A stretch of DNA of 59,004 nucleotides from an uncultured Pseudomonadota bacterium. GTDB lineage: Bacteria; Pseudomonadota; Alphaproteobacteria; Rs-D84. The stretch covers positions 1 to 59,004 of the forward strand of contig CAMVAB010000001.1 in assembly GCA_947165335.1 (NCBI GenBank), given 5' to 3'. How positions within the stretch are numbered: the first letter of the stretch is position 1; each line of letters begins with the position of its first letter. The translations under genes and the position numbers were made by a program. The notes under the pieces are model-generated. The model saw only the letters and a list, made by a program, of their open reading frames with translations, was not told the DNA's origin and ran no database searches. Shown here one piece after another: positions 7,683 through 59,004 of the stretch.

Positions 7683-9735
<2,053 letters not shown>

Positions 9736-35037: not shown

Positions 35038-36060
35038 TTACATCCGCAACAAATATTTTTTCACGAACCAGCCTGAATTCAACTGAATTGCCAAATTTAA
35101 AAAATATTTTTTAAAATTGAAACAATTCGCCCATCTGGTCCAACCAAACAAAGACGCCATCTGTCCGATTGAAAGTTCATTAAAATCTTTGTGTTGAATT
35201 ATGTTTATAATTCTGTTTTTCAATCTTTTTGCTGTTTTTTTTCGCATTAAAATAAAACCATTGAAATGCCGATAACCTATGAAAGGGATTCCATCCAAAG
35301 TTCTTTTCAAATCAGCCTTTGATAAAATCATACTTAAATTTTGTTCAAGAAAGTTTTTAATTTTACTTTTCATGGAATGCAGTTGTTTTTTATCATTGCT
35401 GTACAAACAGAAATCATCGCAATATCGAATATAATCACGACAATGTAAATCATGTTTTACAAATTGATCAAGTTCATTTAAATAAACATTTCCCATCCAC
35501 TGCGAAGTAAGATTACCAATAGGCAAATTAGTATTTCCCCCCACAGAATCTATTATTTCAGATAACACACGCATTATGCGTCTGTCATGAATTTTACGTT
35601 TTACGATATTTTTCATAATTTCATGGTTAATAGATGGGAAAAATTTCCGTATATCACATTGTAAAACATATTTATTGCGCCGTATGAAGTGCATAGTTTT
35701 TTGTGATGCCCCCAAAAGTCCACGTCCAGGGATACAAGCATAAGAATCTTTGATGAAAGATTTTTGCCAAATTGGCCCCAAAACATTTATCAAAGCATGA
35801 TGGACAATATGGTCGGGATACAATGGCAATTTATAAATTATGCGTTGTTTTGGTTCATAAATTTTGAAAGTTTTATAACATGAAGTTTTATATTTACCGG
35901 TTTTAAGACTATTTCTTAATTTTTCTATAAATTCATCTTTGTGTGCCAGAAAATGTTTAACAGATTTCTTTGATTTTTTGCTTTTAATAGCCTTTTTTAC
36001 AGCTAATTCGAAATTTTCTTTTGAAATGAATTTGTCCCACAAATTTTTATAAGTTTTCAT
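35038..36060 (-). CDS. DGR-type reverse transcriptase
   Basis: Motif 4 IGNLTSQ (the DGR signature I/LGxxxSQ), YCDD catalytic box, N-terminus NLWDKFISKENFELAVKKA. The ORF-track start at 36096 is also possible. Confidence 0.9.
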   Translation of the reverse strand: MKTYKNLWDKFISKENFELAVKKAIKSKKSKKSVKHFLAHKDEFIEKLRNSLKTGKYKTSCYKTFKIYEPKQRIIYKLPLYPDHIVHHALINVLGPIWQKSFIKDSYACIPGRGLLGASQKTMHFIRRNKYVLQCDIRKFFPSINHEIMKNIVKRKIHDRRIMRVLSEIIDSVGGNTNLPIGNLTSQWMGNVYLNELDQFVKHDLHCRDYIRYCDDFCLYSNDKKQLHSMKSKIKNFLEQNLSMILSKADLKRTLDGIPFIGYRHFNGFILMRKKTAKRLKNRIINIIQHKDFNELSIGQMASLFGWTRWANCFNFKKYFLNLAIQLNSGWFVKKYLLRM

Positions 36061-36108: not shown

Positions 36109-36435
36109 TTAAGAAAAACTGTAATATCTTTGTACATGAACAACGGTTCCAACGAAAGGTATTTGGTTTGAAAATTCTTTTACCTGTTTAGTTAAAACAC
36201 TGCTGCCTGTAAACAAAACACAAACTTCGCCATCCAATAAGAATTGTAATTGCAAACATTCTGTGCCGTCTTTTTGTTTTGAACGTCTTATTCTGTAATC
36301 GATAACTTTGATTTCGCGGTTAACAATTTCATCAAGACGCTTTTTATTCCCAGGCATAGGCGTTTGATCTTTTGCAAAAACCGAAAATTTTGGACATTCT
36401 GTATTTTTTATTTTTTCAATTTCATCAAATGTCAT
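36109..36435 (-). CDS. 108-aa ORF between TR and RT (candidate non-Avd DGR accessory protein)
   Basis: Intact ORF with a purine-rich stretch (AAAGAGAGAAAA) just upstream of the ATG. Predicted beta-rich and basic (KVIDYRIRRSKQKDG). No resemblance to the helical Avd. Confidence 0.5.
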   Translation of the reverse strand: MTFDEIEKIKNTECPKFSVFAKDQTPMPGNKKRLDEIVNREIKVIDYRIRRSKQKDGTECLQLQFLLDGEVCVLFTGSSVLTKQVKEFSNQIPFVGTVVHVQRYYSFS

Positions 36436-36460: not shown

Positions 36461-36513
36461 GGATATCCCGGACGTTCGCCACGATACAGAACAAACTACT
36501 AGTCCAGATATCC
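36461..36513 (-). other. Long hairpin in the TR-downstream spacer of the DGR RNA
   Basis: GGATATCCCGGAC...GTCCAGATATCC form a roughly 12-bp stem with one bulge. Confidence 0.5.
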
Positions 36514-36703
36514 CCTGCGTATTGTGTTTGATCCAAAGAAAAATAATTTTCCCGGACAGGTTACATCGTCCCACCTTTGATGTGAAAAGGTCTTGTCCAA
36601 ACAGATATCGTTGTCGTCGATACCTGAAAAGTGCCAATGCACTTTGTCCTGCAGGTTAGCCAAACTTTGATCCCTTTGATCTCTGTTGTACCTTTCCAAA
36701 GGA

Positions 36704-36838
36704 GCGACCGACCCGAAAAGCCCGACGCGCATAGCTTCGTTGTTCCGGGCGTTGTTGCCACAGTTGTTCGTGCAATTCGAAGCGCACGAGGCGGCGGACC
36801 CGTTGTCGTTGTTGAACACCCAAAGCGACGCCACGGGA
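36704..36838 (-). repeat. DGR template repeat (TR)
   Basis: 135 nt, GC-rich, non-coding (no start codon). 25 adenines in the sense strand, mostly in AAC codons. Matches VR1 and VR2 except at adenines. Confidence 0.92.
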
Positions 36839-37207
36839 AAAACCCCACGCCACACAACAGCCATCGCACAACCGATTACGACGATGCAACCCAGTTCCGT
36901 ATGGCGGAACCATTCCCAAAAGATTCATGGTGAAATCTTTTGATGATGTATTCTTGTGTTCAAACACATCATTAAAAGATGGTTCTCTCCCCCCCCGTGT
37001 GTGTGGGGGGGGAACCTATTGACCTTCTTTTATAAAGCAAAGGTTTTTCAGGCCGAAACAAAGAAGGTCAATTTCGGCCTGTCCCGCTTTACTGCGGGAC
37101 AGGCGATGTGGGGATTCTCCCCACACCCCTGTTTGCGGCATATCGTGTTTCACACGATATGCAAACCGTTCTGCCGTGCCGCGTGTATTCGCCCCGTTTC
37201 GTTCACA

Positions 37208-37675
37208 TCATTGTGCGACCGACCCGAAAAGCCCGACGCGCATAGCTTCGACGTACCGGGCGTAGTAGCCACAGTAGTACGTGCAACTCGAAGCGCACGA
37301 GGCGGCGGACCCGTAGTCGCCGTTGAACACCCAAAGCGACGCCACGGGATGAGTCATTTTACACCAACAATAACGTCCATATTTTTCACTGCCCTGAACA
37401 AGGTTGGTTTCCCCGTTGTTCGTATCAGTCAACTGCGATTCGTAATACCCCATCGATTTACCCTGGCCCGTATTTAAACACGCAGAAATACCGTATATCA
37501 TGCCGTATGGAAACGTCGCATTCCAAAGCCCTGCTGTCGCATCGTATGTCCCCCCAGCAGTCCCGGCAACCGTTGGATCCAATACCACCACCACAGAATT
37601 ATCAACCGCACACATCGTCGTCGCAAATGACGGTATCGTTATCATCATCATCAATGCTGTTATAATCCGTTTCAT
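37208..37675 (-). CDS. DGR variable protein 1 (155-aa secreted Cys-rich protein)
   Basis: Start MKRIITALMMM with an AAGGAAAG RBS and a signal peptide. C-terminus is YCWCK...SLWVFNGDYGSAASCASSCTYYCGYYARYVEAMRVGLFGSVAQ. Confidence 0.85.
   Translation of the reverse strand: MKRIITALMMMITIPSFATTMCAVDNSVVVVLDPTVAGTAGGTYDATAGLWNATFPYGMIYGISACLNTGQGKSMGYYESQLTDTNNGETNLVQGSEKYGRYCWCKMTHPVASLWVFNGDYGSAASCASSCTYYCGYYARYVEAMRVGLFGSVAQ
37215..37349 (-). repeat. DGR variable repeat 1 (VR1)
   Basis: 135 nt colinear with TR. 11 mismatches, all at TR adenines. Confidence 0.92.
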
Positions 37676-37769
37676 CTTTTCTTTCCTTTTGTTTTGCTTC
37701 TTCCCCGTCCGCTTCTGATTCTTCCCTTGGGGGGAATACTCGCGCAGCAAGAGAGGATAGAATCCCCTT

Positions 37770-38240
37770 TTACCACACCGATTCATACATCGCAGACCGG
37801 AACGTTGTATTCGTTTTAACCGCTGTCATACAATCGTTCGTGCAATTCGATGCACATGTTGCTGCATCCGTATAGGTATCTAAAAACATCCAATATGATG
37901 TTATCCCTGTTTCTGTTCCATACGAATATACGGGTTCCATTTTGCACCAACAATATTTGCCTTGGTCTACGGATGATGTGTATAAATTCGTTTGTGGGGT
38001 TGCGTATGTCCCGCTTATTCCATTACATGCTGCTATGCCTGTTACGCGTTTCGTTGTATTATTTCCATAATCAAAATCAACATACCATATTTTGCCATTG
38101 TTCGATGATGTCCCAGTCGTCCCGGCAATATTCTTTTTCAATATGCCAACATAAGTGTTGTTTTTCGCACACACCGTAACAGCATTTGCAATATCAATTC
38201 CAAATAAACATACAAAAAATAATATTAAAAATTTTTTCAT
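37770..38240 (-). CDS. Paralog of the DGR variable proteins with a decayed (non-TR-matching) VR region
   Basis: Signal peptide and YCWCK motif. C-terminus is ...TDAATCASNCTNDCMTAVKTNTTFRSAMYESVW. Only a 15-nt identical core (37836-37850) is shared with TR. Confidence 0.75.
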   Translation of the reverse strand: MKKFLILFFVCLFGIDIANAVTVCAKNNTYVGILKKNIAGTTGTSSNNGKIWYVDFDYGNNTTKRVTGIAACNGISGTYATPQTNLYTSSVDQGKYCWCKMEPVYSYGTETGITSYWMFLDTYTDAATCASNCTNDCMTAVKTNTTFRSAMYESVW

Positions 38241-38252
38241 GTTCCTTTCCTT

Positions 38253-39041
38253 TCACTCTGTTAACAGTTGCCACCCTGTAAACGAATATCCTGAACGCGA
38301 CGGCGGTGTTTGTGGCAAAACTATGTTTCCTTCGTAAAGACATGTGTTTGTCATCATAGTGTTTTCGCCGTCCGACCATGTCAAAGACACTGTTGGTGTT
38401 GGCAAATCAACACATGTATCACCCGGATTATTATCACAGCGCGTCGTTCGCGTGTATTTCGCATATGGTGATGTACAATTGCCGTTCGTCAATTCACCAA
38501 ATGTATTCGTATTTACTGCGACATCGTAATATCCATTTATACAATCACCCGCAACATACGATACGCAACTTCCCCCCGACAGATACCCATTCGTACATAA
38601 ATTAACCACATTCCCCATCAAAAATCCGTTATATACAGGGTCAAAATCATCCGGCAGCACAATTAACGAATATCCACCAATTTGACATATACCATCACCA
38701 GGCGCCGTAAATGTGGATTCTGTAATGCCAATATTATATGTGCCGTTCATACATGATCCCTGAGTAAACGATGTACAACTGCCACCGGTCAAATATCCGT
38801 CATCACACAAAGTGTGTGTCCCACCCATTACAAAACCATTATATATCGGTTCAAAATCATCCGGAATTTCAATTAATGTATATCCACCAAATTGACATAC
38901 ACCACCAACGGGTGAAACAAATGTAGAATCTATGACATTTGATGCAACGCTGTAACCATTTTGACATGTTGCAGACGCAAAAGCATCCATTGCAAATAAT
39001 TGCAATATAAATAATCTAAAAAATAATCTATACCTACTCAT
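38253..39041 (-). CDS. Secreted Cys-rich tandem-repeat protein with a C-terminal Flg_new repeat
   Basis: GGGGGAG RBS and signal peptide. Two repeats of about 70 aa (C.NG...C.GGY.LI..PDDF.P.YNGF.MG....LC..GYL.GGSC). Ends in GYSFTGWQLLTE. Confidence 0.7.
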   Translation of the reverse strand: MSRYRLFFRLFILQLFAMDAFASATCQNGYSVASNVIDSTFVSPVGGVCQFGGYTLIEIPDDFEPIYNGFVMGGTHTLCDDGYLTGGSCTSFTQGSCMNGTYNIGITESTFTAPGDGICQIGGYSLIVLPDDFDPVYNGFLMGNVVNLCTNGYLSGGSCVSYVAGDCINGYYDVAVNTNTFGELTNGNCTSPYAKYTRTTRCDNNPGDTCVDLPTPTVSLTWSDGENTMMTNTCLYEGNIVLPQTPPSRSGYSFTGWQLLTE

Positions 39042-39250
39042 TACTCCCCCACAAAACAACCACCGTAAATCGTTATGGTGGTTGGAGGTCAGTAGCTATA
39101 AAAACAGATATAGTGTGCTTATTCTATCTTTCGATATTATTCAGCATCCCTCCAACCAATATGTTGGAGGCATTTTTCGTCTGCTCTGCGACGCTGTTTT
39201 CCAATCAGGGCTACTGCACCCAGGCACAAGAACCCCTTGTGCTTAAGTCC

Positions 39251-45037: not shown

Positions 45038-45065
45038 AAAAACCGTCCAATCGGACGGTTTTTTT
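45036..45065. terminator. Bidirectional terminator
   Basis: aaccgtcc-aatc-ggacggtt flanked by A- and T-runs. Confidence 0.8.
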
Positions 45066-46287: not shown

Positions 46288-47012
46288 TAAATCATCCCCC
46301 CATTTACTGATATGACCTGACGTGTGATGTATGCAGCGTCATCACTTAAAAGATACGCAACCAAAGATGCGATTTCTTTCGGTTGTCCCATACGACGCAT
46401 AGGTATCATTTTTTGAATTTCTTCAATTGGTAATTGTGCTGTCATATCTGTTTCAATTACGCCCGGCGCAATTGCATTTACTGTGATATTGCGTTTTGCT
46501 AATTCAACAGCCAAAGATTTCACAGCACCAATTATACCCGCTTTGGATGCGGCATAATTAACCTGGCCCCTGTTTCCCATTACACCCGATATAGACGACA
46601 TCGCAATAATACGACCCGGTCTGCGTGCCGAAATCATAGGCATAACACATGGGTGCAACACATTATAAAGACCATCTAAATTAGTATGTAAAACTTTGTC
46701 CCACGCATCGCCGTCCATAACCGGAAAAGGATTATCATCATTTATCCCCGCATTACAAATAACACCATAATATGCACCATGTTCATTTATATCTTCTGAT
46801 AAAACTTTTTCTGTTTGTTCGCGATTTGAAATATCAAAAGATAAAATACGTGCATTGGCCCCTAAATCTTTGACTTCACTTAAAGTTTTTTCAACCGCTG
46901 CTTTGTTGGAATTGTAATGCAAAACTAAATCATACCCCAGCGGTGCCAGATAAAGCGCTATTGCACGACCTATACCACGAGAAGCCCCAGTAATCAAAAC
47001 AGTTTTATTCAT
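46287..47012 (-). CDS. fabG: 3-oxoacyl-ACP reductase (SDR; ApeQ-like)
   Basis: TGASRGIGRAIA and YAASKAG motifs. Confidence 0.85.
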   Translation of the reverse strand: MNKTVLITGASRGIGRAIALYLAPLGYDLVLHYNSNKAAVEKTLSEVKDLGANARILSFDISNREQTEKVLSEDINEHGAYYGVICNAGINDDNPFPVMDGDAWDKVLHTNLDGLYNVLHPCVMPMISARRPGRIIAMSSISGVMGNRGQVNYAASKAGIIGAVKSLAVELAKRNITVNAIAPGVIETDMTAQLPIEEIQKMIPMRRMGQPKEIASLVAYLLSDDAAYITRQVISVNGGMI

Positions 47013-47472
47013 TTGTTTCCCCCATAAAATCGTTTATGTCGTCTGGTCGAAAAGCATTAAGATTTGCGTTCGCAACCAAATTGTTTTTTGAATCGTATAT
47101 ATGACATTCAAAAGATGCTATGTTATTATCACAAAACATAGATTTCACATGTACATAATAACTTTCATCTTTATTGAATACAGGTATCATTACATGTAAA
47201 TCACGTGAACCCATAATAAATCCAGCAACCGCTTTTGTAGAACCTGTTAAATGAATGTCTTGTGCACCAATATAACACGCGATAGATTGTGCCATATATT
47301 CAAGCGCCACCGCCCCAGGCACACCATTTATATTTTTTTGAAATAATAAATCAGTATCTTTAACATCAATTCGTGTTACCATTTTTTGTTCATCAAAATC
47401 AACGCTTTCTATCGCACTAATAAATGCCATCGGCGCTTTCTGTGGTAATAAATCAATTGGATTTAAATTCAT
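47005..47472 (-). CDS. Hotdog-fold 3-hydroxyacyl-ACP dehydratase (ApeP-like)
   Basis: 155 aa, located between the KS and KR genes. Confidence 0.6.
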   Translation of the reverse strand: MNLNPIDLLPQKAPMAFISAIESVDFDEQKMVTRIDVKDTDLLFQKNINGVPGAVALEYMAQSIACYIGAQDIHLTGSTKAVAGFIMGSRDLHVMIPVFNKDESYYVHVKSMFCDNNIASFECHIYDSKNNLVANANLNAFRPDDINDFMGETNE

Positions 47473-47473
47473 T

Positions 47474-48610
47474 TTATTTTCCTATAATTAAACTGGCATT
47501 GCTGCCACCAAAAGCGAATGCATTACATAATATATGATTTATTTCAACTGTATCGCCAATTTTTGCTAATCTTATTTTTGCACAATCATCACCAAATTCA
47601 CCATCAAATACATGTGGTATAATAAAGTTATGCTTTAACATCAGCCACGATAAACCCATGCTAACAGCACCCGCAGCACCCAACGTGTGCCCGGTCAAAG
47701 GTTTGGTTGATGCACACAAAACATTTTCACCAAACAGCGTATTTATCGCTAAAGATTCCATTGCATCATTTGCGATTGTACCAGTACCATGCATATTTAT
47801 AAAATCTATATCATCTGGTTTTAATCCAGCGTCTTTCAGCGCCATATTCATAGATGCAATTGCACCGGCGCCCGTTGGATCAGGACTTGTTAAATGATAT
47901 GCATCAGACGTTTCACCAATACCCAATAATTTAATTCCACAACACCCACGTTCCAATATGAACAAAGCCGCGCCTTCACCCAGGTTTATCCCGTCTCTAT
48001 TTTTTGACATAGGGTTTGTGTGTTTTTTACTCAAAGCACTTAACGCGTTAAAACCATTCAAAGCGAAATCGCATCTGCCGTCAACACCACCAACCAACAC
48101 TGCATCACAAATACCGTTTTCAATCAATCTGCGTGCGCTTTCAAAAACCTTTAAACTGGACGAACAAGCGGTTGAAATTGTAAATGCAGGACCATTAAAA
48201 CCAGTTTGTTTTTTAATATATTCCGCAGGTGTTCCAAGCTCAAGTTCATTTAAAACACTTTTTTCTATTTCAATATTATTTTGAAAGGCGTGTTCTATGT
48301 GTTTTTGCGCTTCATGCACACCAGTATTTGATGAACCAACAATAATACCTATACAATTTATATCATAATTTTGTTTTAATAATTCAATGTCGCCCATTAT
48401 TTGCTTTAACGCGGCATCTATCAAATCATACATACGCAAATCGTGCACTTGTTCAACTGGCGCTGTTCCAAAAGGAACTTTTTCATCCCCGACAATAACA
48501 TTTCCTGAAAACATAGCGCGTGTATCACCACTGCGTGCGTTCTGTATAATATCGTTGTGATTGTCCCCCAGCGCACACACGAAGCCAAGATTTTTTAATA
48601 CATATTCCAT
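47474..48610 (-). CDS. Beta-ketoacyl-ACP synthase (ApeO-like)
   Basis: Start MEYVLKNLG at 48610. Motifs STACSSS, HGTGT and GHTLGAAG. Confidence 0.85.
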   Translation of the reverse strand: MEYVLKNLGFVCALGDNHNDIIQNARSGDTRAMFSGNVIVGDEKVPFGTAPVEQVHDLRMYDLIDAALKQIMGDIELLKQNYDINCIGIIVGSSNTGVHEAQKHIEHAFQNNIEIEKSVLNELELGTPAEYIKKQTGFNGPAFTISTACSSSLKVFESARRLIENGICDAVLVGGVDGRCDFALNGFNALSALSKKHTNPMSKNRDGINLGEGAALFILERGCCGIKLLGIGETSDAYHLTSPDPTGAGAIASMNMALKDAGLKPDDIDFINMHGTGTIANDAMESLAINTLFGENVLCASTKPLTGHTLGAAGAVSMGLSWLMLKHNFIIPHVFDGEFGDDCAKIRLAKIGDTVEINHILCNAFAFGGSNASLIIGK

Positions 48611-48686
48611 TTCAAATCCAACTTGCAAAATAGGAATCTTTTTATATAATGACACAGTATTGTATAAAAAAATCGATTTTTCAAGT

Positions 48687-49316
48687 ATGAACAAAACCTT
48701 ATATATTGATAATTTTGAATTTTGGATGGAAAATGATACGGAAAAACTTCCTGACGTTTCATTTATACCATCAATGTTGCGACGCCGCATGAGCGCACTT
48801 GAAAAAGTCGCAATTGGATTGGCAAATAAAATTGCACCAGAAACACCAGATTATAAACTGGTTTTTGCATCACGTTTTGGCGAATGGGAACAAACCATAA
48901 AACTTATCCGTCAATTTTATGACGACAAAGAAATGTCGCCTGCAGGATTCAGTAATTCTGTTCATAATGCCGCAATGGGACATTTTTCATTGTTAACACA
49001 TAATAAAAATTCATACACTTCTGTTGCAGCAGGCGAAAAAACAATAGAAAATGCCCTACTTGATGCAATACTGACAGATAAACCTGTATTATTTATATAT
49101 GGTGAAGAACACACCCCAACCGAATACGAACACATGTTAGAAAAGCCCGGTTTATCACATGGTTGTGCAATTTTGATTAAAGGAAACGGACAAAAAAAAT
49201 ATGAATTAACAACTAATAATGAAGATTTACCGCCACTTTCTTTTGAAGAATTAAAAAACGCCCTACAAACCGGTTCAAATATCACAACATCTAATTGGAT
49301 ATTATCAAAAAAATAA
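48687..49316 (+). CDS. KS N-terminal-domain-only protein (chain-length-factor-like, ApeC-like)
   Basis: Start MNKTLYIDNF. About 209 aa with no active-site Cys motif. Family recalled as Ketoacyl-synt_2. Confidence 0.55.
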   Translation: MNKTLYIDNFEFWMENDTEKLPDVSFIPSMLRRRMSALEKVAIGLANKIAPETPDYKLVFASRFGEWEQTIKLIRQFYDDKEMSPAGFSNSVHNAAMGHFSLLTHNKNSYTSVAAGEKTIENALLDAILTDKPVLFIYGEEHTPTEYEHMLEKPGLSHGCAILIKGNGQKKYELTTNNEDLPPLSFEELKNALQTGSNITTSNWILSKK

Positions 49317-50056
49317 TGAAAAAAATTATCAGATCTTTTTTAAGTGGTTTTTGTTTTTCCGTTTTTGGAATAGGCGGTCTTGTTGCAGGAACATTCATCG
49401 TGCCTTTCCCATTATTATTGTGCAACAAACGCAATCAAAGATGCATCTTATCTGGCACTATCCACTATTTGTGGAAATTGTTTGTATGGTTAATGTGTGC
49501 TTTGAAATTGATTGATGTAAAAATACAAAATAAAAAAAAATTAAAGCAATTACGCGGTAATATAATCGTTGCAAATCACCCATCTTTGATAGATGTTGTA
49601 ATATTGGTTTCGAAAATACCTCGTTCAATATGTGTGGTAAAAGGAAGCTTATTTCAAAATGTCTTTATAAAATTTTTAATTCGCCATGTTTATCTTTCTA
49701 ATTCTATGACGCCTGACGAATTTATGAATCAAGCCACCGATTGTTTAACAAACGGCTATAACATCATAATTTTCCCAGAAGGTACCCGTACAGTAAAAAA
49801 CAAACCAATTCATCTGCATCGCGGTTTTGCCTATTTACACTTGTATTCAAAACACGATATTCAACCACTTCATATAACAAATACCCCACATATCCTGGGC
49901 AAAGGCAGCAAATGGTACAATGTCGGGGACAAAACCTCTGTTTATAAAATAAAAATGTTGCCAACTATACGTTTTAAAGCGAAAAAATCCAACAGCATTC
50001 GTCAAAATGCTGTTTCTGTCACAAAACAAACAAAAAAAGCCCTGTTCATCGCATAG
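49316..50056 (+). CDS. Lysophospholipid (PlsC-type) acyltransferase
   Basis: NHPSLID (HX4D) and FPEGTR motifs. N-terminal TM helix. Confidence 0.8.
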   Translation: MKKIIRSFLSGFCFSVFGIGGLVAGTFIVPFPLLLCNKRNQRCILSGTIHYLWKLFVWLMCALKLIDVKIQNKKKLKQLRGNIIVANHPSLIDVVILVSKIPRSICVVKGSLFQNVFIKFLIRHVYLSNSMTPDEFMNQATDCLTNGYNIIIFPEGTRTVKNKPIHLHRGFAYLHLYSKHDIQPLHITNTPHILGKGSKWYNVGDKTSVYKIKMLPTIRFKAKKSNSIRQNAVSVTKQTKKALFIA

Positions 50057-50061
50057 AAAAA

Positions 50062-50098
50062 CTTGACAACTAGGGATTCTTTGCTAGCATTTGTCAAG
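50062..50098 (+). promoter_or_regulatory. Promoter embedded in a palindrome upstream of the ACP genes
   Basis: TTGACA(50063), 16 nt, TAGCAT(50085). The arms CTTGACAACTAG and CTAGCATTTGTCAAG form an imperfect inverted repeat. Confidence 0.45.
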
Positions 50099-50119
50099 AT
50101 TTAGATTTAAGGATACCCC

Positions 50120-50395
50120 ATGAAAAAAGAAACGCTTGAACAAGAAATCAAAGAAATTATTATTTCCGCGCTAGATTTAGAAGATGTAACCGTTGCAGAC
50201 ATCGATTCAAAGGCTCCTCTGTTTAACGAAGGACTGGGACTTGATTCTATTGATGCTTTGGAATTAGGTATGGCGTTAAAGAAAAAATACGATGTTAGTT
50301 TTAAATCAGATAAAGAAGAAAACAAAGAATTTTTTAAATCTGTAGAAAATTTAGCAAAATATATTGCAGAATCTAAAAACATCACATTGGAGTAA
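50120..50395 (+). CDS. Acyl carrier protein 1
   Basis: LGLDSIDALEL phosphopantetheine attachment motif. Confidence 0.85.
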   Translation: MKKETLEQEIKEIIISALDLEDVTVADIDSKAPLFNEGLGLDSIDALELGMALKKKYDVSFKSDKEENKEFFKSVENLAKYIAESKNITLE

Positions 50396-50399
50396 GAAC

Positions 50400-50654
50400 A
50401 TGCACACAAAAGAAGAAATTTTTAATACTATCAAAGAAATTTTAGTCAAAGATTTTGATTGCGATGAATCTAAAATTAAAAACGAATCCAAATTAGTGGA
50501 AGATTTAGATTTAGACAGCATTGATGCAGTTGATTTGGTTGTAAAATTACAAACCATCATAAATCAAAAAGTAGACCCTGAAGATTTTAAACAAATCCGC
50601 ACAATACAGGATGTTGTCGATGCAGTTGAAAAAATTGTTAACGGTAACCACTAA
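50400..50654 (+). CDS. Acyl carrier protein 2
   Basis: LDLDSIDAVDL motif. Start MHTKEEIF. Confidence 0.85.
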   Translation: MHTKEEIFNTIKEILVKDFDCDESKIKNESKLVEDLDLDSIDAVDLVVKLQTIINQKVDPEDFKQIRTIQDVVDAVEKIVNGNH

Positions 50655-51177
50655 AATATTTTTGGGGTGTTTTATCGTTGCATACCCTTTCATCGTTTTT
50701 TATGCGCTAAAACAAAATATCGCCGTTAAATTTATCGGCCTTATTTTGTTAACAGTGATTATTTTTTCGTATCTTCGCAACAGAAACAAATGTCTTTTTA
50801 TGACCGGATTACTGGTCGCCTTCATGGTTATATTGTTTAACCAAGAAATCTTTCTTAAAATCTATCCGGTGTTAATGAACGCATCTGTGTGTTCCGTCTT
50901 TGCCTTGTCTTTAAAAAAGACACCTCTTATCACACAATTTGCACAAAAGATGCAGAAAAAACCACTAAATGAAGAAACTGTCGTTTATACCCGCAGCGCA
51001 ACAGTTGCATGGGCAATATTCATGTTTTTAAACACTCTTGTTTCTTTGACAACTGTATTTATGTCAGATGAAATTTGGGTATTATATAACGGATTTATAT
51101 CTTATGTCTTGATTGGTATAATGATGTCTGCTGAATACATCTTTCGAAAGGTTAAACAACAATGTTCACACCAATAA
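50620..51177 (+). CDS. Integral membrane protein (ape-cluster-associated, COG4648-like)
   Basis: Five or six TM helices. Sits at the conserved position between the ACP and AMP-ligase genes. Confidence 0.5.
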   Translation: MQLKKLLTVTTKIFLGCFIVAYPFIVFYALKQNIAVKFIGLILLTVIIFSYLRNRNKCLFMTGLLVAFMVILFNQEIFLKIYPVLMNASVCSVFALSLKKTPLITQFAQKMQKKPLNEETVVYTRSATVAWAIFMFLNTLVSLTTVFMSDEIWVLYNGFISYVLIGIMMSAEYIFRKVKQQCSHQ

Positions 51178-52859
51178 ACCGCGTTTTTATTGAAACCATT
51201 GATAAAGACAGAATTGTTTTTTATAAGAACGAACAACCTGTATCTTTTGAAACATATATGAACGATGTCGCAAAATATGCCTGTTATTTTAACACAATAC
51301 AAAATGATAATGTTGTTATATATATCCCAAATGATTTATATTTGTTTTATGTATGTTTTATGGCAGCACTTCAAGCAGGCAAAGATGTTATTTTGCCAGC
51401 CTTGCTTACAGAACAAAATTCCAGACCTTTACTTGAAATGACAAATGTTTTAATTACTGACAAATTTGATTCTTTAAAAGGTTTTAATATTATAGATTTG
51501 AATTGCGGAAATAATATCAATTGGCAATTCAATGATATGTCTGACAGATTTTTATATTTCTTTACATCTGGGTCGACGGGCACCCCGAAACGCATCAAAA
51601 AACAATTCAAAATGCTTGCCGCCGAAGAAGATTTTCATGGACGAAATCAAAAACATTTGATTGAACAAAACCCAGTTATGATATCATCTGTTGCACCATA
51701 TCATATGTATGGGTTGCTTTGGCGATTTTTATTTCCATTAGCAAACGGTATTATATCTGATTTAGATATTGTTTTTACACCCGAAGAATTACAACATAAA
51801 CAATCTATATATGACAAAGTTTTATTTGCAACAACGCCTTCGTTTTTGGACGGCATAACCAGATATCAAAACCAATATTATTTTAGAAACAACTGTATTG
51901 GTCTTTATTCATCTGGCAGTTTATTAGATGCAAAAACATCAAACAATGCATATCAAATGTTTGGTGCATCCCCATACGAAATATTCGGCAGTACCGAAAC
52001 AGGTGGTGTTGCATCACGTCAACAAATAAACGGCCAAGAATGGACTATATTTACACCGGTAAAAGTCACATTGACAGAAAACAGTGAATTATTGATTGAA
52101 TCTGATTTTTCATGTGCAAACCCATATTTAATGTCCGACATTGTTGAAAAGACCGGCAACAATACTTTTATATTAAAGGGTCGCGGGGATCGCATGGTAA
52201 AAATTGCCGAAGAACGCGTATCGTTACCTGAAATGGAAGAAAAGCTTTGCGAATATAAATATATTGAAAAAAGTTATGTATCAACATTGTCTACAAAAGA
52301 CAGGACTATTATTTGTGCTGCAATAACATTAAATGATGACGGCAAAAATTATATTATCAAAAACGGCCGGCACCAATTCATAACTGAATTAAAACAATAT
52401 TTATTAAATTATTTTCCAAATGTTGTTCTGCCACGAAAAATCAGAATCGTTAATGCTATCCCCGTAAACACCCAGGGTAAATATATAAAATCAGATATCG
52501 CATCTATGTTCGAATCAAATGTTGCAGAACCAATAATGCAAAACATAACAAAAACAGATTCTAAATTTTCCGCGGATTTAATATTTTTAAAAGATTCTTC
52601 TTATTTTAATGGCCATTTCCCAGGGCATCCTATTTTACCTGGTGTTATACAAATGCATTTTGTTATGACATTTATCAAACAGTATTTTAACAAAGAAGCA
52701 ACAAATTATCATGTTTTGAAATTAAAGTTTTCAAATCTGATTTTGCCAGATACACAAATATATTTTGAATTGAATAAAATTGACGACAATGAATTTACAT
52801 TTGAATACAGCCACAATGGCAACAGTTGTTCAAAAGGCAAAATAGTCATAGAGGCATAA
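51162..52859 (+). CDS. AMP-dependent synthetase/ligase fused to a FabA/FabZ-like hotdog dehydratase
   Basis: FFTSGSTGTPKRI and GSTETGG adenylation motifs. The C-terminal roughly 120 aa carry GHFPGHPILPGV. Confidence 0.8.
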   Translation: MFTPINRVFIETIDKDRIVFYKNEQPVSFETYMNDVAKYACYFNTIQNDNVVIYIPNDLYLFYVCFMAALQAGKDVILPALLTEQNSRPLLEMTNVLITDKFDSLKGFNIIDLNCGNNINWQFNDMSDRFLYFFTSGSTGTPKRIKKQFKMLAAEEDFHGRNQKHLIEQNPVMISSVAPYHMYGLLWRFLFPLANGIISDLDIVFTPEELQHKQSIYDKVLFATTPSFLDGITRYQNQYYFRNNCIGLYSSGSLLDAKTSNNAYQMFGASPYEIFGSTETGGVASRQQINGQEWTIFTPVKVTLTENSELLIESDFSCANPYLMSDIVEKTGNNTFILKGRGDRMVKIAEERVSLPEMEEKLCEYKYIEKSYVSTLSTKDRTIICAAITLNDDGKNYIIKNGRHQFITELKQYLLNYFPNVVLPRKIRIVNAIPVNTQGKYIKSDIASMFESNVAEPIMQNITKTDSKFSADLIFLKDSSYFNGHFPGHPILPGVIQMHFVMTFIKQYFNKEATNYHVLKLKFSNLILPDTQIYFELNKIDDNEFTFEYSHNGNSCSKGKIVIEA

Positions 52860-52863
52860 AAAG

Positions 52864-53595
52864 ATGAAACCGGTTATAATTATTCCTTGTTTTAATCATG
52901 GCGATGCATTTGCGCCAGTGGCCGATAAATTAACCGAATTCAAAACACCTGTTATTGTCGTTGATGATGGCAGCGCTTCACAGCAATCAAAGAAAATCAA
53001 AAACATTTGTTCGGCGCACAATTTTATATACATAAAAAACAAAACAAATGGTGGCAAAGGTGCCGCTATGATTACTGGATTTCAATATGCCTTGAAACAA
53101 GGTTTTTCACATGCATTACAAATAGACGCAGATGGTCAACATGACATTCGCGATATACCATTATTTTTAAAAATCGCATTTTCACATCCAAATGATTTAA
53201 TTATTGGCAATCCTGTTTATGATGAATCTGCGCCACGCGCACGACTGGCTGGGCGAAAAATAACAAATTTTTGGGTTATGGTTGAAACATTTAATAAACA
53301 TATGCCAGACACAATGTGCGGGTTTCGTGTATATCCATTAAAAGCAGTTGAACCAATATTAGAAACTATCAAATTCAAACGTATGGGATTTGATATTGAA
53401 ATAATAGTCAAAGCATACAGAAACAAAATTAAAATTATTCCTGTGCCAACAAAAGTTATTTATCCCGAAAATGGGGTATCTCATTTCCATGCCATCAAAG
53501 ATAATTTTTATATCAGTTTGCTTCATGCGTATTTATGTTGTTTAATACCAGCATGGTTAACCAGGAGAATGTTTAGTCATGATAAAAATAAATAA
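52864..53595 (+). CDS. Family 2 glycosyltransferase
   Basis: IIIPCFNHG, VVDDGS and DADGQH motifs. Confidence 0.8.
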   Translation: MKPVIIIPCFNHGDAFAPVADKLTEFKTPVIVVDDGSASQQSKKIKNICSAHNFIYIKNKTNGGKGAAMITGFQYALKQGFSHALQIDADGQHDIRDIPLFLKIAFSHPNDLIIGNPVYDESAPRARLAGRKITNFWVMVETFNKHMPDTMCGFRVYPLKAVEPILETIKFKRMGFDIEIIVKAYRNKIKIIPVPTKVIYPENGVSHFHAIKDNFYISLLHAYLCCLIPAWLTRRMFSHDKNK

Positions 53596-54172
53596 GTTTT
53601 TATTTGTTATATCTTGTTTGTTTTCTGTTAATGCTTTTGCATACCAAATAACAGATAAAATGCCAGACACACTAAAAACATTTACAGATAATTTAAACAC
53701 TGTATCTGCAACATTCAAACAAACAAAAATATTGCCTGAATCTACGAAAAGTTTTATATCAAAAGGTTATATTAAATTTGTAAAAAATGTCGGCTTTACA
53801 TGGCATCAACAAAAACCAAGTGAAGAAATCTTTACATCGACGCTTACCACATATTGTGTTAATGGCGAAACAGAAGATTTGGATAAACTGCCGTATTTCT
53901 ACCGCATACAAACTATGATAGACAATATGTTAAATGGCGATATGTCTGAATTTTTATATGCGTTCAATGTAGATTATCGTGAACAGAAAGATTCATGGAC
54001 TTTGATAGCAACACCACGTTTAACGACCATTGCAGATATGATTCAAGATATAACAATGTACGGTACAAAAACTGATTTAACAAAAATAATCATGACATAT
54101 TATGATGGCACGATTGTTATTTTAGAATTCACACGTTTAACAAAAGAAATTGCTGATGAAATTGCTTGTTAA
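53579..54172 (+). CDS. LolA-like outer-membrane lipoprotein carrier protein
   Basis: Signal peptide, about 197 aa, at the conserved position before the exporter gene. Confidence 0.55.
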   Translation: MIKINKFLFVISCLFSVNAFAYQITDKMPDTLKTFTDNLNTVSATFKQTKILPESTKSFISKGYIKFVKNVGFTWHQQKPSEEIFTSTLTTYCVNGETEDLDKLPYFYRIQTMIDNMLNGDMSEFLYAFNVDYREQKDSWTLIATPRLTTIADMIQDITMYGTKTDLTKIIMTYYDGTIVILEFTRLTKEIADEIAC

Positions 54173-56291
54173 AAGATTTTTGTTTTGTTTGGTAATAATT
54201 ATTGGTGTTATTACGACGCTTGTGTTCAAAACACCCCTGCATACACAATCTAATTTAATGTCTTTGATAACATATACAAACGAACAACAATGGCCTGTTG
54301 ATAAAATATCAGGAAAATTTTCATCAGTTTTAAACATTGTTGTTGAATCGAGAGACGAAAAAATTGCGACCAGAACAGCAAATTCAATAATAAAAACATT
54401 AAACACTGATACTTTTGATACTCTAACCATTCAATCAAATAATTTTTCAATTAAAAATATAGCGAAAGATTTAGTTTTATATAAAAACAATTTATTAAGC
54501 ACACAAAACAAAACATTATTACAACATAATGAATCCAGAAAAATCGCAAACGCTGCTATTAAATATGTCGAAGAGTCTATGATACCACCACTTGTTTCAA
54601 TTAGTGATGATCCTTTTATGTTGTTATCTGATTATATAACGAATATAAATACAGGCAATTCAACATGGACATTGCATAACGGATTACTTTGGCAAAACAA
54701 AGATAGTGTTCATTATTTCATGATTCCTGTTGATGTTAATGTTGCTGATGCGTCACGCGCTGCAAAACAAATAAATAATCTGCGACATGAATTACAAAGT
54801 TCAGACCAAATCAAAATACACATCAGCGGAATCCCACTACATACCGCATTTATGGTTCAACGAAGCCAATTACAATTGGGTATATTGTCATTTTTGGCAA
54901 TATTAATGGCTATAGTTTTCAATTATTTATTATTTAAAAAATTATTCACACTTATCCCTGTACTAACTAGTTTATCAATTGGATTTCTTGGTGGAACCAT
55001 TGCGTTATTTTTGTGTTTTAATGCACCTCATATTTTAACATTTGTATTTGGAACGACTTTGATTGGGCTTGGCATAGATTATGCTTTTCATTTCATGACT
55101 GCGGCCACATTGAAAAACAGAAAACAAATATTTACCAACATGCGCCAATCGTTTTTGACAACACTTGTTTGCTTTTTACCGTTGTTATTTTCACAAATAA
55201 CCCTTTTGCAACAAATATCAGTATTTACAATTGTCGGTTTAACAACAATATATGTTGGATTAAAATTATTTATGCCAAACAAATTGAAATTGAATATAAA
55301 ACCGATAAAAACCAAATTGGTATTATCAAAAAAAACACGCACAATTATATTATCTATGATTACAGTCGCTATTGTTGCAACATTACCATTTGTAAAATCA
55401 GAAAATAATATGAACGAACTTTATCGTCCGAACCGCGACATCGCGGAACAGGACATATTTTTCCAAAAATTAAATAATTCAAAAGATTCTGCGATATTAT
55501 TGGTACGCGGAGATAACATAGAACAAATTCTTGAAACAGAAGAAAATATTAAAACAACAACTGACTTCTTTTCTATTGCAAGCGTTATACCATCCGTAAA
55601 AACACAAACTGAAAACCAGAAACTAGTCAAACAACTTTACGCACAACAATCTAAATATCTGAAACAAAAACTAGAATTACGTAAAACACCAACATTTGTT
55701 GAAAACGATTTTATAACCCCAGAAAATATAAAATCAGAATTTTTATCGAATTGGTTAAATAAAATGATTATCTATGATGATGGTCATGTTTATTCATTTG
55801 CACAAATTCCAGCAAATACAGATATAACCAACGAAAACGCAATTGTTGTATCACCATCACAGATTTTAACCAACAATATTCAACAATACAGCAATGAAAC
55901 ATATCGCCTGTTGTTAATATGTGGTTTATGTTTAATTGCTTTGTTATCAGTATTTTATAAAAAACGTGCAATTATTTATTTGATACCTTCTATACTTGCA
56001 ATATTACTATCAGTATCTATTCTAACATGGTTTGGTCAACCAATAACCTTTTTCCATATGTTAAGTTTCTTTATTGTGATTGGTCTTGGGCTTGATTACA
56101 CAATATTTAATATAAACGCGGATAACAACAAAGAAATGCGCCCTGTCCTATTTTCGTTCCTGACCAGTTTTGTTGGATTTGGAATGTTGGCATTTACATC
56201 GTTCTTTTTGATTAAATCAATGGGAATAACGTTGGGACTTGGGTTGGCATTATCGTATTTGATATCACTCTTTTTATTCAGAACAAAATGA
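54150..56291 (+). CDS. MMPL/RND-like exporter
   Basis: 713 aa with two blocks of TM helices, each preceded by a large loop. Confidence 0.7.
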   Translation: MLMKLLVKRFLFCLVIIIGVITTLVFKTPLHTQSNLMSLITYTNEQQWPVDKISGKFSSVLNIVVESRDEKIATRTANSIIKTLNTDTFDTLTIQSNNFSIKNIAKDLVLYKNNLLSTQNKTLLQHNESRKIANAAIKYVEESMIPPLVSISDDPFMLLSDYITNINTGNSTWTLHNGLLWQNKDSVHYFMIPVDVNVADASRAAKQINNLRHELQSSDQIKIHISGIPLHTAFMVQRSQLQLGILSFLAILMAIVFNYLLFKKLFTLIPVLTSLSIGFLGGTIALFLCFNAPHILTFVFGTTLIGLGIDYAFHFMTAATLKNRKQIFTNMRQSFLTTLVCFLPLLFSQITLLQQISVFTIVGLTTIYVGLKLFMPNKLKLNIKPIKTKLVLSKKTRTIILSMITVAIVATLPFVKSENNMNELYRPNRDIAEQDIFFQKLNNSKDSAILLVRGDNIEQILETEENIKTTTDFFSIASVIPSVKTQTENQKLVKQLYAQQSKYLKQKLELRKTPTFVENDFITPENIKSEFLSNWLNKMIIYDDGHVYSFAQIPANTDITNENAIVVSPSQILTNNIQQYSNETYRLLLICGLCLIALLSVFYKKRAIIYLIPSILAILLSVSILTWFGQPITFFHMLSFFIVIGLGLDYTIFNINADNNKEMRPVLFSFLTSFVGFGMLAFTSFFLIKSMGITLGLGLALSYLISLFLFRTK

Positions 56292-56780
56292 TATTTCATT
56301 TTGCGGTTCAATTGAACAAACACAAATTAAATAATCGCCTTTTTCATAAAAATAAGAATTTGCTTTTTCAGCATCTGCACCAAATTTAATGCGCGCTTCA
56401 TATTCCACAAAGTTTTTATAAAAATCTTGTTTATTTTTCGGTTTTGGCAAATTTAATAATTCGCTTTCACCAATAAAATCACGATTGATTGTTGTATTTT
56501 CAATATCAACACCCACAGGACTATCAGAAACCGCGACAATAACCCAATTATCTTTGTGCGCAATAGATATAAACCCAGATTTAATTATTGGTGCACTATT
56601 TTTATCTACGATAACATTTTCGCCACAAACATCTTTGACCTTTGCATGCGATAATAAATATTGTAATTTACGATTTTTGTTTGAAAATTTGCCGTATTGA
56701 AGCAGTTCTGCCCCGGATAATTTTTGTTCTAATTCAGGCACATTCTTTATATCTTGAATATTTGACATATATATTTTCAT
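56274..56780 (-). CDS. 4'-phosphopantetheinyl transferase (Sfp-type)
   Basis: VGVDIE and FVEYEARIK motifs. Confidence 0.7.
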   Translation of the reverse strand: MKIYMSNIQDIKNVPELEQKLSGAELLQYGKFSNKNRKLQYLLSHAKVKDVCGENVIVDKNSAPIIKSGFISIAHKDNWVIVAVSDSPVGVDIENTTINRDFIGESELLNLPKPKNKQDFYKNFVEYEARIKFGADAEKANSYFYEKGDYLICVCSIEPQNEISFCSE

Positions 56781-56818
56781 GGGATAAATTATAAAGGAAA
56801 AATATCAAAAGGCAACAA

Positions 56819-57736
56819 ATGAACAAATGGTATCAAATTCGCGAACAAAGCGCGGGCAATTTCCGCCTTGAATTGCTTTGGATCGTTTATAAAATATTTG
56901 GTATCAGATTTTTAAAGTTCATTTTATGGTTTGTCTGCCTGTTTATCGTCCCATTTGCGAAACCAGCAAGAGAAGCATCAAAAAAATATTCAAAAATATT
57001 GAACGCATATCAACGCGCACATGGGATGAAAGAAACCAGTATTTCAGCATTTTCGCATATTTATAATTTCGCTTGCAGTATATTGGATAAAATGTCGGCG
57101 AATAGTGATAAAAAAACAAAAATTAAATTCGCGGTTCATAAAAACACCGATTGGGATGCGTTCCAATCATGTTTAAATGACAACCAGGGCACATTTCTAA
57201 TATGTTCGCATCTTGGAAACATAGAAGCACTTTCCGCATTTTCTGGGGGTAAAAACAAACACATGCATGCATTTATGCAAATTTCCCAAAACGCCACATT
57301 TCACAAATTTATGACACGCCATAATGTCGCAAACAATACCACTATTTATCCAACCGAAGATATAAATATAGGTGTCGCATCCACAATGTATGATTTCTTA
57401 CAAAAAGGTGATTTAGTCATGATGGCTGGCGATCGCACTTCACCAAATGCACCGTCAAGATATGAAACTGTTCCTTTCTTGGGCGCCGATTGCCGTTTTC
57501 CAATTGGAACTTTCAAATTCGCAAAATCTATGTCGCACCCGATATTTGCAATATGCGTAATGAATGTGGCACACGAAAAATACGGTGTTTATGTCAAGAA
57601 ATTGGATGCCCAAACAATAAAGGAAACGATAATACAATATGCGACATTCCTTGAAAAACTGACCGTTAAATACCCAAAACAATGGTTTAATTTCTTTGAT
57701 TTTTTTGAATCAGGGACAAATCAGGCAGAAAATTAA
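56819..57736 (+). CDS. Lipid A biosynthesis (LpxL/HtrB-like) acyltransferase family protein
   Basis: N-terminal TM helix. Size and CSHLGNIE (HX4-type) region are consistent with the family. Confidence 0.6.
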   Translation: MNKWYQIREQSAGNFRLELLWIVYKIFGIRFLKFILWFVCLFIVPFAKPAREASKKYSKILNAYQRAHGMKETSISAFSHIYNFACSILDKMSANSDKKTKIKFAVHKNTDWDAFQSCLNDNQGTFLICSHLGNIEALSAFSGGKNKHMHAFMQISQNATFHKFMTRHNVANNTTIYPTEDINIGVASTMYDFLQKGDLVMMAGDRTSPNAPSRYETVPFLGADCRFPIGTFKFAKSMSHPIFAICVMNVAHEKYGVYVKKLDAQTIKETIIQYATFLEKLTVKYPKQWFNFFDFFESGTNQAEN

Positions 57737-58036: not shown

Positions 58037-58245
58037 CGGCTTAGGAAGGGACCGAAAACTGATTTGTTCCCCTCTGGCTAGAGGGGTGCCGGAACGGCGG
58101 GGTGTTGCAGGTTCTCCCCTTGGGGGGAGTACCGGCGCAGCCGGGGAGGGAGGATCCCCCGCCACAGGCGGGGAATAAAAAACACCCACTTTCGTGGGTG
58201 TTTGCGTGTTGCCGTGCCGCGTGTATTCGCCCCGTTTCGTTCACA

Positions 58246-59004
58246 TCATTGTGCGACCGACCCGAAAAGCCCGACGCGCATAGCCTCGCCGCCCCGGGCG
58301 CGGGAGCCACAGTAGCTCGCGCAATTCGAAGCGCACGAGGCGGCGGACCCGCGGTCGCCGTTGAACACCCAAAGCGACGATGATGCATTTTGTTTATTTC
58401 CATTTAATGGTTTATATCCCGTTGCCTTACACCAACAGTATTGGCCCGTGCTATTTTTATTATATGATGCATCGGTAACGTATAATTTTGACCATATCTC
58501 GCCAGTTGCTTCGTCATATGTTATTGTGCCATTACTGTATCTTGTAAATATATCGGCTGCTATTGCGCCTTTTTCCTGACCAGCCAACGATGTATAGTTT
58601 GCTAAGAATTCATATGGATCCATTTGGCCGCCAACGGCAGATTCTACATTAGCTACAAAATACGCCATACCCGCATCCAATGTTGGTTGGCAACTCGCTT
58701 CACCGTATACTGTGCCATAACTGAATTCTGTTTTCCATTCGTTGACCGCTAAATCGCTTAATGCCGCACTTTCCTGGGTACATACACTTGCCCCTTCAGA
58801 ATCAACAGTCCCATCGCCATATGCAGAACAATAATCTGTATTATTATTCCACCCATGTCCGTAAGAATGATTGCCATCTATCGATGCATTTAATGTGGAC
58901 AGGTCAAATCCACGCACACGCCAGCCGCCGAATGTATATCCGGTCTTTGTCATTGTATTTGTTGGTAATGTTATCACACTGTCGTATGTACATGTGTTCG
59001 CTGT
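58246..59004 (-). CDS. DGR variable protein 2 (Flg_new repeats + large Cys-containing domain + VR2; 5' end outside window)
   Basis: The frame stays open to the window edge (TANTCTYDSVITLPTNTMTKTGYTFGGW...). C-terminus is YCWCK...SLWVFNGDRGSAASCASNCASYCGSRARGGEAMRVGLFGSVAQ. Confidence 0.85.
   Translation of the reverse strand, partial: TANTCTYDSVITLPTNTMTKTGYTFGGWRVRGFDLSTLNASIDGNHSYGHGWNNNTDYCSAYGDGTVDSEGASVCTQESAALSDLAVNEWKTEFSYGTVYGEASCQPTLDAGMAYFVANVESAVGGQMDPYEFLANYTSLAGQEKGAIAADIFTRYSNGTITYDEATGEIWSKLYVTDASYNKNSTGQYCWCKATGYKPLNGNKQNASSSLWVFNGDRGSAASCASNCASYCGSRARGGEAMRVGLFGSVAQ
58253..58379 (-). repeat. DGR variable repeat 2 (VR2), remote from TR
   Basis: 127 nt colinear with TR 36704-36830. 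16 mismatches, all at TR adenines. Confidence 0.9.

Follow-up and report, generated by a model that had tools for sequence, protein, structure and literature searches.

The window analysed here, a stretch of 59,004 nt, comprises contig CAMVAB010000001.1 (GenBank assembly GCA_947165335.1) of an uncultured alphaproteobacterium of the Rs-D84 lineage and contains a diversity-generating retroelement (DGR) with its template repeat (TR), variable repeats (VRs) and reverse transcriptase (RT). The DGR cassette spans 35.0–39.1 kb and reads, along the minus strand, as an open reading frame (ORF) with an Flg_new repeat, a VR-less paralogue, target gene 1 with its repeat VR1, the TR, a spacer, an ORF of 108 aa and the RT. 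The RT matched RVT_1 (9e-13) and has the motifs LPIGNLTSQ and YCDD, as in DGR-type RTs; its nearest NCBIfam models, those of group II intron and retron RTs, all scored far below their cut-offs, which is expected for a DGR RT. A further repeat, VR2, lies near the contig end in another gene (target gene 2). The intervening 20.9 kb hold priA, miaA, gap, a lipid/polyketide cluster (ketosynthase, ketoreductase, ApeP-type dehydratase, second ketosynthase, acyltransferase, AMP-ligase, GT2 and LolA-like genes) and rpmG, much as a previous annotation made from the letters of this DNA (hereafter, the sequence-only reading) had listed them.

Sliding positions 58100–59004 against 36500–37000 gave a best ungapped register (offset 21549) that pairs TR 36704–36830 with VR2 58253–58379, with 111 of 127 nt identical. 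All 16 mismatches fall where the TR has T on the printed plus strand, that is, A on the minus (coding) strand. With adenines at 25 of the 127 nt of the TR core, the probability of 16/16 mismatches falling on adenine by chance is 2.5e-14, and the comparison of VR1 with the TR likewise placed 11 of 11 mismatches at TR adenines (P = 2e-9). The sequence-only reading had proposed this colinearity, the VR2 peptide (...FNGDRGSAASCASNCASYCGSRARGGEAM...) and a common strand for VR2 and TR; the alignment and translation agree with it on all three, and TR, VR1 and VR2 all lie on the minus strand. Its claim that every difference is at a TR adenine also stands, with the correction that these are adenines of the minus strand and appear as T in the printed sequence; re-alignment, which it had named as a way to expose differences at other sites, exposed none.

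Two invariant blocks, of 32 nt and 30 nt, each occur exactly three times in the window (in TR, VR1 and VR2) versus zero expected. A low-stringency blastn search with the TR across the window found no fourth copy of the repeat, and neither a second RT nor a second TR was found within it. The sequence-only reading had also recommended a search for further copies of the A-free block at the 3' end of the repeat; within the window these are confined to TR, VR1 and VR2, and the block had no matches in either the genome or the metagenome contig collection. A degenerate version of the block returned only two chance matches, both in high-GC DNA, and none in viral contigs.

VR2 forms the last 42 codons of an ORF that is open to the contig end, and it finishes 5 nt before the TGA stop at 58246–58248. 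Its GC content is 72%, compared with 42% in the remainder of target gene 2. Within the TR, 24 of the 25 adenines occupy codon positions 1 or 2, many of them in ten Asn codons (nine AAC and one AAT), and adenine substitution cannot give rise to stop codons. Chance similarity, or plain paralogy without a DGR, was considered as a source of the repeat and ruled out by the mismatch statistics together with the GC jump at VR2. Given A-to-N differences only, no other DGR in the window and unrelated genes in between, VR2 qualifies as a remote target by the published criteria of Wu et al. 2018 for non-adjacent targets (PMC5758913). Our conclusion is that VR2 is very probably a DGR-written, non-adjacent target of the TR and RT at 35.0–39.1 kb; with less assurance, we also consider it more likely than not that VR2 is active today. 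The proposal that one TR and RT serve two loci in trans is supported by the A-only mismatches, by the placement of VR2 at the 3' end of an intact frame and by an A-free block and flank like those of VR1.

The TR and both VRs agree through a 27-nt A-free, GC-rich 3' block (GCGCGTCGGGCTTTTCGGGTCGGTCGC), as far as ...GGTCGGTCGC. Past that point the VRs have a further 43 nt in common, whereas the TR runs into its own spacer. This flank is identical at 43 of 43 positions between VR2 (58210–58252) and VR1 (37172–37214) and is absent from the TR. VR-specific 3' sequence that the TR lacks is the asymmetry of the initiation of mutagenic homing (IMH) side of a DGR, and we presume that the 43-nt flank is the recipient-site determinant. 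The longest exact run between the two VR loci is 75 nt. In sister cassettes on two related contigs, the orthologous VR1 flanks match that of the window at 33 of 43 positions (L045, whose RT is 87% identical) and 15 of 43 positions (L046, RT 77% identical). Since these sister flanks have diverged by 10 and 28 of 43 positions, the perfect identity within the window is not explained by base-by-base functional constraint.

Judged from these alignments, the 170-nt module of VR plus flank, whose limits (58210–58379) the sequence-only reading had drawn exactly, is a recent copy made within the genome. Because the TR does not contain the flank, retrohoming cannot have moved it, and the likely route is recombination or gene conversion, between paralogues or with the VR1 locus. 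Between VR1 and VR2 there are 13 differences, each at a TR adenine, and no non-adenine substitutions across the 170 nt, which implies at least one homing event after the module was copied and with the present flank in place. By the same comparison, one or both of VR1 and VR2 have been rewritten since the copy. Both may have been, in the independent homing events with which the sequence-only reading found their divergence consistent.

Farther downstream, perfect hairpins of 10–11 bp lie 49–52 nt past VR1 and VR2 and could simply be terminators. The one at 58180–58203 looks like the terminator of target gene 2, with a T-run following it, and is possibly a cruciform for target recognition. A separate GC-rich hairpin was seen about 28 nt past the VR in L045 (TTGACGCG-G-CGCGTCAA, at about 372–392) and in L046 (GACGTG-G-CACGTC, at about 8958–8972), where it is intact with compensating changes; the corresponding window positions are 37172–37200 and 58210–58238. 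Coordinates of the features are collected in Table 1.

Table 1. Features of the DGR cassette and of the remote target locus in the window.
Feature	Position	Strand
VR2: variable repeat, 127 nt colinear with TR, 16 A-to-N differences, encodes ...SLWVFNGDRGSAASCASNCASYCGSRARGGEAMRVGLFGSV	58253..58379	-
VR2 3' flank, 43 nt: last two codons (AQ), TGA stop 58246-58248, 36 nt of 3' untranslated region	58210..58252	-
Target gene 2: C-terminal 252 codons, N-terminus lost at contig end	58246..59004	-
Perfect 10-bp hairpin with GAAA loop (coding strand), then T-run; begins 49 nt past end of TR homology	58180..58203	-
TR: 135 nt common to VR1; 127 nt (36704-36830) common to VR2	36704..36838	-
Conserved structured region 3' of TR, presumed spacer part of DGR RNA	36590..36703	-
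Conserved 108-aa ORF between TR and RT, isoelectric point (pI) 8.8	36109..36435	-
DGR RT: 340 aa from MKTYKNL (length as in homologues), RVT_1, IGNLTSQ and YCDD	35038..36060	-
VR1 of cassette-adjacent target: 11 TR differences, all at TR adenines	37215..37349	-
VR1 3' flank, identical to VR2 flank	37172..37214	-
Target gene 1: 155-aa secreted protein with signal peptide, beta-sheet, YCWCK strand and VR helices	37208..37675	-
Tandem paralogue of target 1 without VR: 156 aa, ...CASNCTNDC...	37770..38240	-
268-aa Flg_new-containing ORF heading the cassette; L046 arranged likewise	38253..39059	-

In target gene 2, part of an Flg_new repeat is present together with a beta-sheet core that contains a helical insert, and with the YCWCK strand and the VR helices. 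It had been described as a larger protein than target 1, differently built and with Flg_new repeats, and this description holds in part. The window shows a single, truncated Flg_new repeat (PF09479) that scores 22.7 bits against the Pfam cut-off of 27 bits; many full-length homologues of target 2 carry PF09479, and the family profile had a weak match to the InlB B-repeat among PDB sequences. While BLASTP aligned just the last 66 residues of the two target proteins, profile–profile comparison of the small and large target types revealed a common core domain (99.7% over 109 columns). The large type consists of the common core plus Flg_new and the helical insert. Full-length homologues of target 2 start with signal-peptide-like hydrophobic N-termini.

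One such full-length homologue, P0001 (375 aa, encoded on a different NCBI/ENA contig), resembles target 2 in a mosaic fashion. Its N-terminal part is about 75% identical, residues 125–229, which take in the VR's first half and three diversified codons within it, are 100% identical, and past this stretch the two differ at diversifiable codons and then, over the last eight codons, at non-adenine positions. P0001 may represent a paralogue from the same genome, or else an orthologue served by a different template. An intergenic, GC-rich element of about 50 nt was also observed beside both target loci (58112–58159 and 37719–37767, 80% identical), and similar GC-rich stretches have led to database entries with N-termini that are spuriously extended, among them P0001 and P0044, the latter being the database copy of target 1.

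AlphaFold models of the two target proteins (m07353cd7948b and md9dc5dfa9e84, with VR domains encoded at 58246–58400 and 37208–37360) were mutually consistent, with pLDDT of 84.6 for target 2 and 84.4 for target 1, the core exceeding 93. In both, a beta-sheet ending in the YCWCK and LWVF strands is followed by two C-terminal helices that bear the VR (residues 221–238 and 240–247 in target 2; 124–141 and 143–153 in target 1). The TR encodes ...C-ASN-C-TNN-C-GNN-AR-NN-E..., in which the cysteines fall at i, i+4 and i+8 and the Asn pairs recur with a period of four residues, a spacing that suggests a single variable helical face held by cysteines, and in the models the variable residues are predicted to lie mainly on the cysteine-rich C-terminal helix. 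Six Cys of the 155-aa target are conserved, and a metal site in place of disulfides is possible at the cysteines. Foldseek searches with both models against PDB and BFVD gave no matches at E ≤ 1e-3, and the VR domain had no Pfam match even at E = 10 and no NCBIfam match. Neither sequence nor predicted-fold searches placed the domain among C-type lectins (CLec), and the same Foldseek searches returned no Ig-like fold. A weak PHD-finger match (E = 4e-4, profile versus PDB sequences) was set aside as a product of the Cys pattern, unsupported by the fold searches.

The CLec fold is regarded as a near-universal DGR scaffold (PMC8144416). Tentatively, and with a little less than even confidence, we propose that a DGR lineage widespread in reduced-genome gut and rumen Alphaproteobacteria (Enterousia/Rs-D84-like) varies an undescribed beta-sheet scaffold that is neither CLec nor Ig, with a C-terminal Cys-rich helix-turn-helix displaying NN-xx-NN-xx-NN on one face, and that this lineage recruits remote targets by copying of the 170-nt module and uses a non-Avd accessory protein of 108 aa. 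A second natural scaffold, if true, would bear on how proteins tolerate massive variation and on their engineering.

The cassette itself belongs to a common type. RT homologues at 60–87% identity are abundant in metagenome-assembled genomes (MAGs) labelled Alphaproteobacteria, and contigs L045, L046 and L049 have the gene order of the window, including an ORF of 108–119 aa, and A-only TR/VR pairs with 11, 14 and 17 sites. About 110 nt on the 3' side of the TR are conserved above the TR's own variable codons and contain three predicted stem-loops; comparison with the counterparts in L045 (745–858), L046 (9398–9511) and L049 (9257–9370) identified seven pairs with compensatory changes across the four cassettes, and the region 36590–36703 is probably the spacer of the DGR RNA. 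An Rfam scan of the window reported only two tRNAs, both located elsewhere. Between the target 1 stop and the TR we also observed a dense run of perfect or near-perfect inverted repeats with arms of 11–18 nt (36935–37104).

Searches of Pfam, NCBIfam and PDB with the 108-aa ORF came back empty even at E = 10. Its product is mildly basic (pI 8.8), and the ORF has been kept in the sister cassettes L045, L046 and L049–L052. It is a candidate accessory protein, not Avd by sequence. Avd, a non-obligatory component, occurs in about 74% of DGRs. The CH1 accessory class (160–169 aa, acidic) differs from this ORF in both size and charge (PMC5758913). The VR-less tandem paralogue at 37770–38240, with its own signal peptide, a C-terminus reading ...CASNCTNDC... 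and a counterpart in L046, has no DNA match to the TR; it is either a sibling left undiversified or a target that has decayed.

Target 2 has relatives in 'Candidatus Enterousia' and in further alphaproteobacterial MAGs from gut or rumen. Members of the Enterousia/Rs-D84 clade have genomes below 1 Mb and a metabolism that depends on partners (PMC12306168), and the genome of the present host is probably also very small, under 1 Mb. No phage-like features were seen in the region between the loci, and the small-target family profile had no match in the viral contig collection; the absence of both repeat and small-target family from viral contigs fits a cellular DGR. The cluster between the loci (45064–57736) is aryl-polyene-like, with two ketosynthases, a ketoreductase, an ApeP-type dehydratase, an acyltransferase and an AMP-ligase, together with GT2, a LolA-like protein and a lipid A acyltransferase-like protein.

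A scan of GTDB genomes, with patterns that matched the large target type only, returned 43 loci, often several per genome, and no RT or TR was found within 10 kb of these loci. In within-genome pairs of large-type paralogues the VR-like 3' ends are alike, and their mismatches are concentrated at codon positions 1 and 2. One such pair (L004 10001–10540 and L018 10001–10540) lies about 98 kb apart on contig CAMOGA010000001.1 with flanks identical at 57 of 60 positions, and the downstream flanks of another (L030/L038) are identical at 60 of 60. VR-like 3' ends were also seen in the large-type pairs L002/L008, L003/L005 and L019/L021. All these pairs have the look of dispersed targets whose TRs lie outside the DNA covered. 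Three metagenomic Flg_new-type proteins (P0019, P0029 and P0030, 215–218 aa) are near-identical except at VR positions, and among 46 homologues of the small target, column entropy is highest where the TR codon is Asn. This peak, like the A-only differences of VR1 and VR2 beside an identical flank, is indirect evidence of ongoing homing. Taken from these sequences, the picture for the lineage would be one of a small adjacent target, with larger, dispersed family members as further targets. A search of a representative library with the family profile was swamped by giant Flg_new-repeat proteins and is uninformative on the size of the VR-module family.

The steps of DGR mutagenesis are established for DGRs generally and are inferred for this locus. 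Here, the TR would be transcribed together with its conserved downstream spacer, and the RT would copy this RNA with misincorporation opposite adenines, probably assisted by the 108-aa ORF. The resulting cDNA would replace any genomic repeat that has the recipient-side signals, which at VR2 would be the same as at VR1: the 27-nt A-free block, the 43-nt flank absent from the TR and a strong hairpin about 50 nt downstream. Since these signals agree, one TR and RT could rewrite both loci in trans. Rewriting would randomise 14 codons (ten of them Asn), for about 1.4e14 protein variants in the last 40 residues, and VR2 would have become a target when the 170-nt module of the VR1 locus was copied within the genome. 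Its role is likely to lie in varying the binding proteins that a partner-dependent, reduced-genome gut alphaproteobacterium secretes or has on its surface.

Several points weigh against VR2 as a target of this cassette. The 43-nt flank folds no better than shuffled sequence, the GC-rich hairpin of L045 and L046 is present only in degenerate form in the two flanks of the window, and the accessory protein cannot be recognised as Avd. P0001, the only close homologue, matches the first half of the VR and has a 3' end that this TR could not have written. The analysis covers VR2 in one assembled sequence and a single contig of the genome, at whose end target gene 2 is cut. Alternatively, VR2 may be a frozen relic and no longer a live target: the VR1 module would have been copied once with the A-to-N changes it then carried, and only VR1 would have been rewritten since. 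A-only differences and an identical flank are equally expected from such a history, the degenerate hairpin is compatible with it, and the likeness of P0001 and VR2 over the first 22 VR residues, including the three diversified codons, suggests slow change in that part of the VR. Still, VR2 has all cis elements of VR1 base for base and nothing known exempts it from homing, its 170 nt have gathered no non-adenine substitutions and its frame is intact, and larger members of the family vary from sample to sample at VR positions. That engineered sites can be targeted in trans is moreover described as established in a passage of PMC5758913 that cites Guo et al. We consider a relic unlikely.

The unwritable end of P0001 also hints at more than one template type in the clade, and with a single 59-kb contig covered, VR2 might in principle depend on a different DGR or TR, located on another contig of the genome, and not on the TR at 36.7 kb. 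That TR, however, accounts for all 127 positions of VR2 with A-only differences and has an identical 3' block, which makes a second TR unnecessary, and we regard this as highly improbable. Slighter still is the chance that assembly attached the last ~800 nt to the contig by way of the 75-nt exact repeat, which would make the 21-kb distance an artefact. VR2 does lie less than 800 nt from the contig end, and an N-terminal region common to the paralogues P0001 and P0013 is probably what broke the contig there. But on the rpmG side the repeat is bounded by unique sequence unlike that downstream of VR1, so a copy of the flank must adjoin rpmG regardless, and the 13 differences between VR1 and VR2 mark VR2 as a distinct locus; even with a wrong join, VR2 would remain a second, non-adjacent target. 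The reading of VR2 as a remote target written by the cassette at 35.0–39.1 kb is the one we retain.

Copying of the module illustrates cleanly, in a natural setting, how a DGR can gain a target, with two otherwise dissimilar genes that share an identical flank, VRs that differ at TR adenines only and sister flanks that have diverged. It would narrow the cis-requirements for trans homing to 170 nt or less. In addition, hypervariable secreted proteins suggest themselves as obvious candidates to mediate attachment to a partner or host in a poorly known gut clade with genomes under 1 Mb.

Compared with the DGR of Bordetella phage BPP-1 (mtd-avd-TR-brt), the window shares the RT motif (I/L)GxxxSQ, adenine-specific transfer from TR to VR and AAC-rich TR codons, as well as a GC-rich 3' block, beyond which VR and TR can be told apart by their sequence, and a downstream hairpin that in the window may simply be a terminator. 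In contrast, the BPP-1 element is phage-borne, with a single adjacent target, Avd and the CLec protein Mtd, and its order is target-avd-TR-RT as opposed to target-TR-ORF108-RT in the window. DGRs of Candidate Phyla Radiation (CPR) bacteria and DPANN archaea are reportedly the subject of Paul et al. 2017 (Nat Microbiol). They too belong to reduced-genome, partner-dependent hosts in which surface attachment proteins are thought to be varied, a likeness by lifestyle (PMC12306168 for Enterousia/Rs-D84) and not by sequence, whereas their hosts are of other phyla and their targets are CLec proteins.

Closer parallels for the layout come from cellular DGRs. The Treponema denticola DGR similarly combines one TR and RT with adjacent and dispersed paralogous targets (TvpA and six further, non-adjacent ones), with the VR at the 3' end of each gene, the products being surface or secreted proteins (PMC5758913). 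Its targets are CLec proteins and its accessory gene is of the HRDC type, unlike the window, where the targets have no CLec match and the accessory candidate is an unannotated ORF of 108 aa. Cyanobacterial DGRs, for which 76 remote targets at the 3' ends of paralogues have been reported, also place a C-terminal VR domain on different N-terminal parts, with remote VRs always at 3' ends, and their authors proposed 3'-end cis elements that activate remote targets (PMC7517822). These domains are CLec folds on mostly cytosolic signalling proteins in large genomes, in contrast to the apparently secreted Flg_new proteins and probably <1 Mb genome here. More broadly, Wu et al. 2018 linked 45 of 372 DGRs to 73 non-adjacent targets, which lay anywhere between a few kb and Mb away, and for two DGRs the sole target was 20 kb away; a passage of the same paper also cites experiments in which avd-TR-brt acted in trans (PMC5758913). 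MyDGR likewise includes a dedicated search for remote targets (PMC6602519). The non-adjacent layout is thus already known, and VR2 is a further case that adds one example to a documented DGR arrangement.

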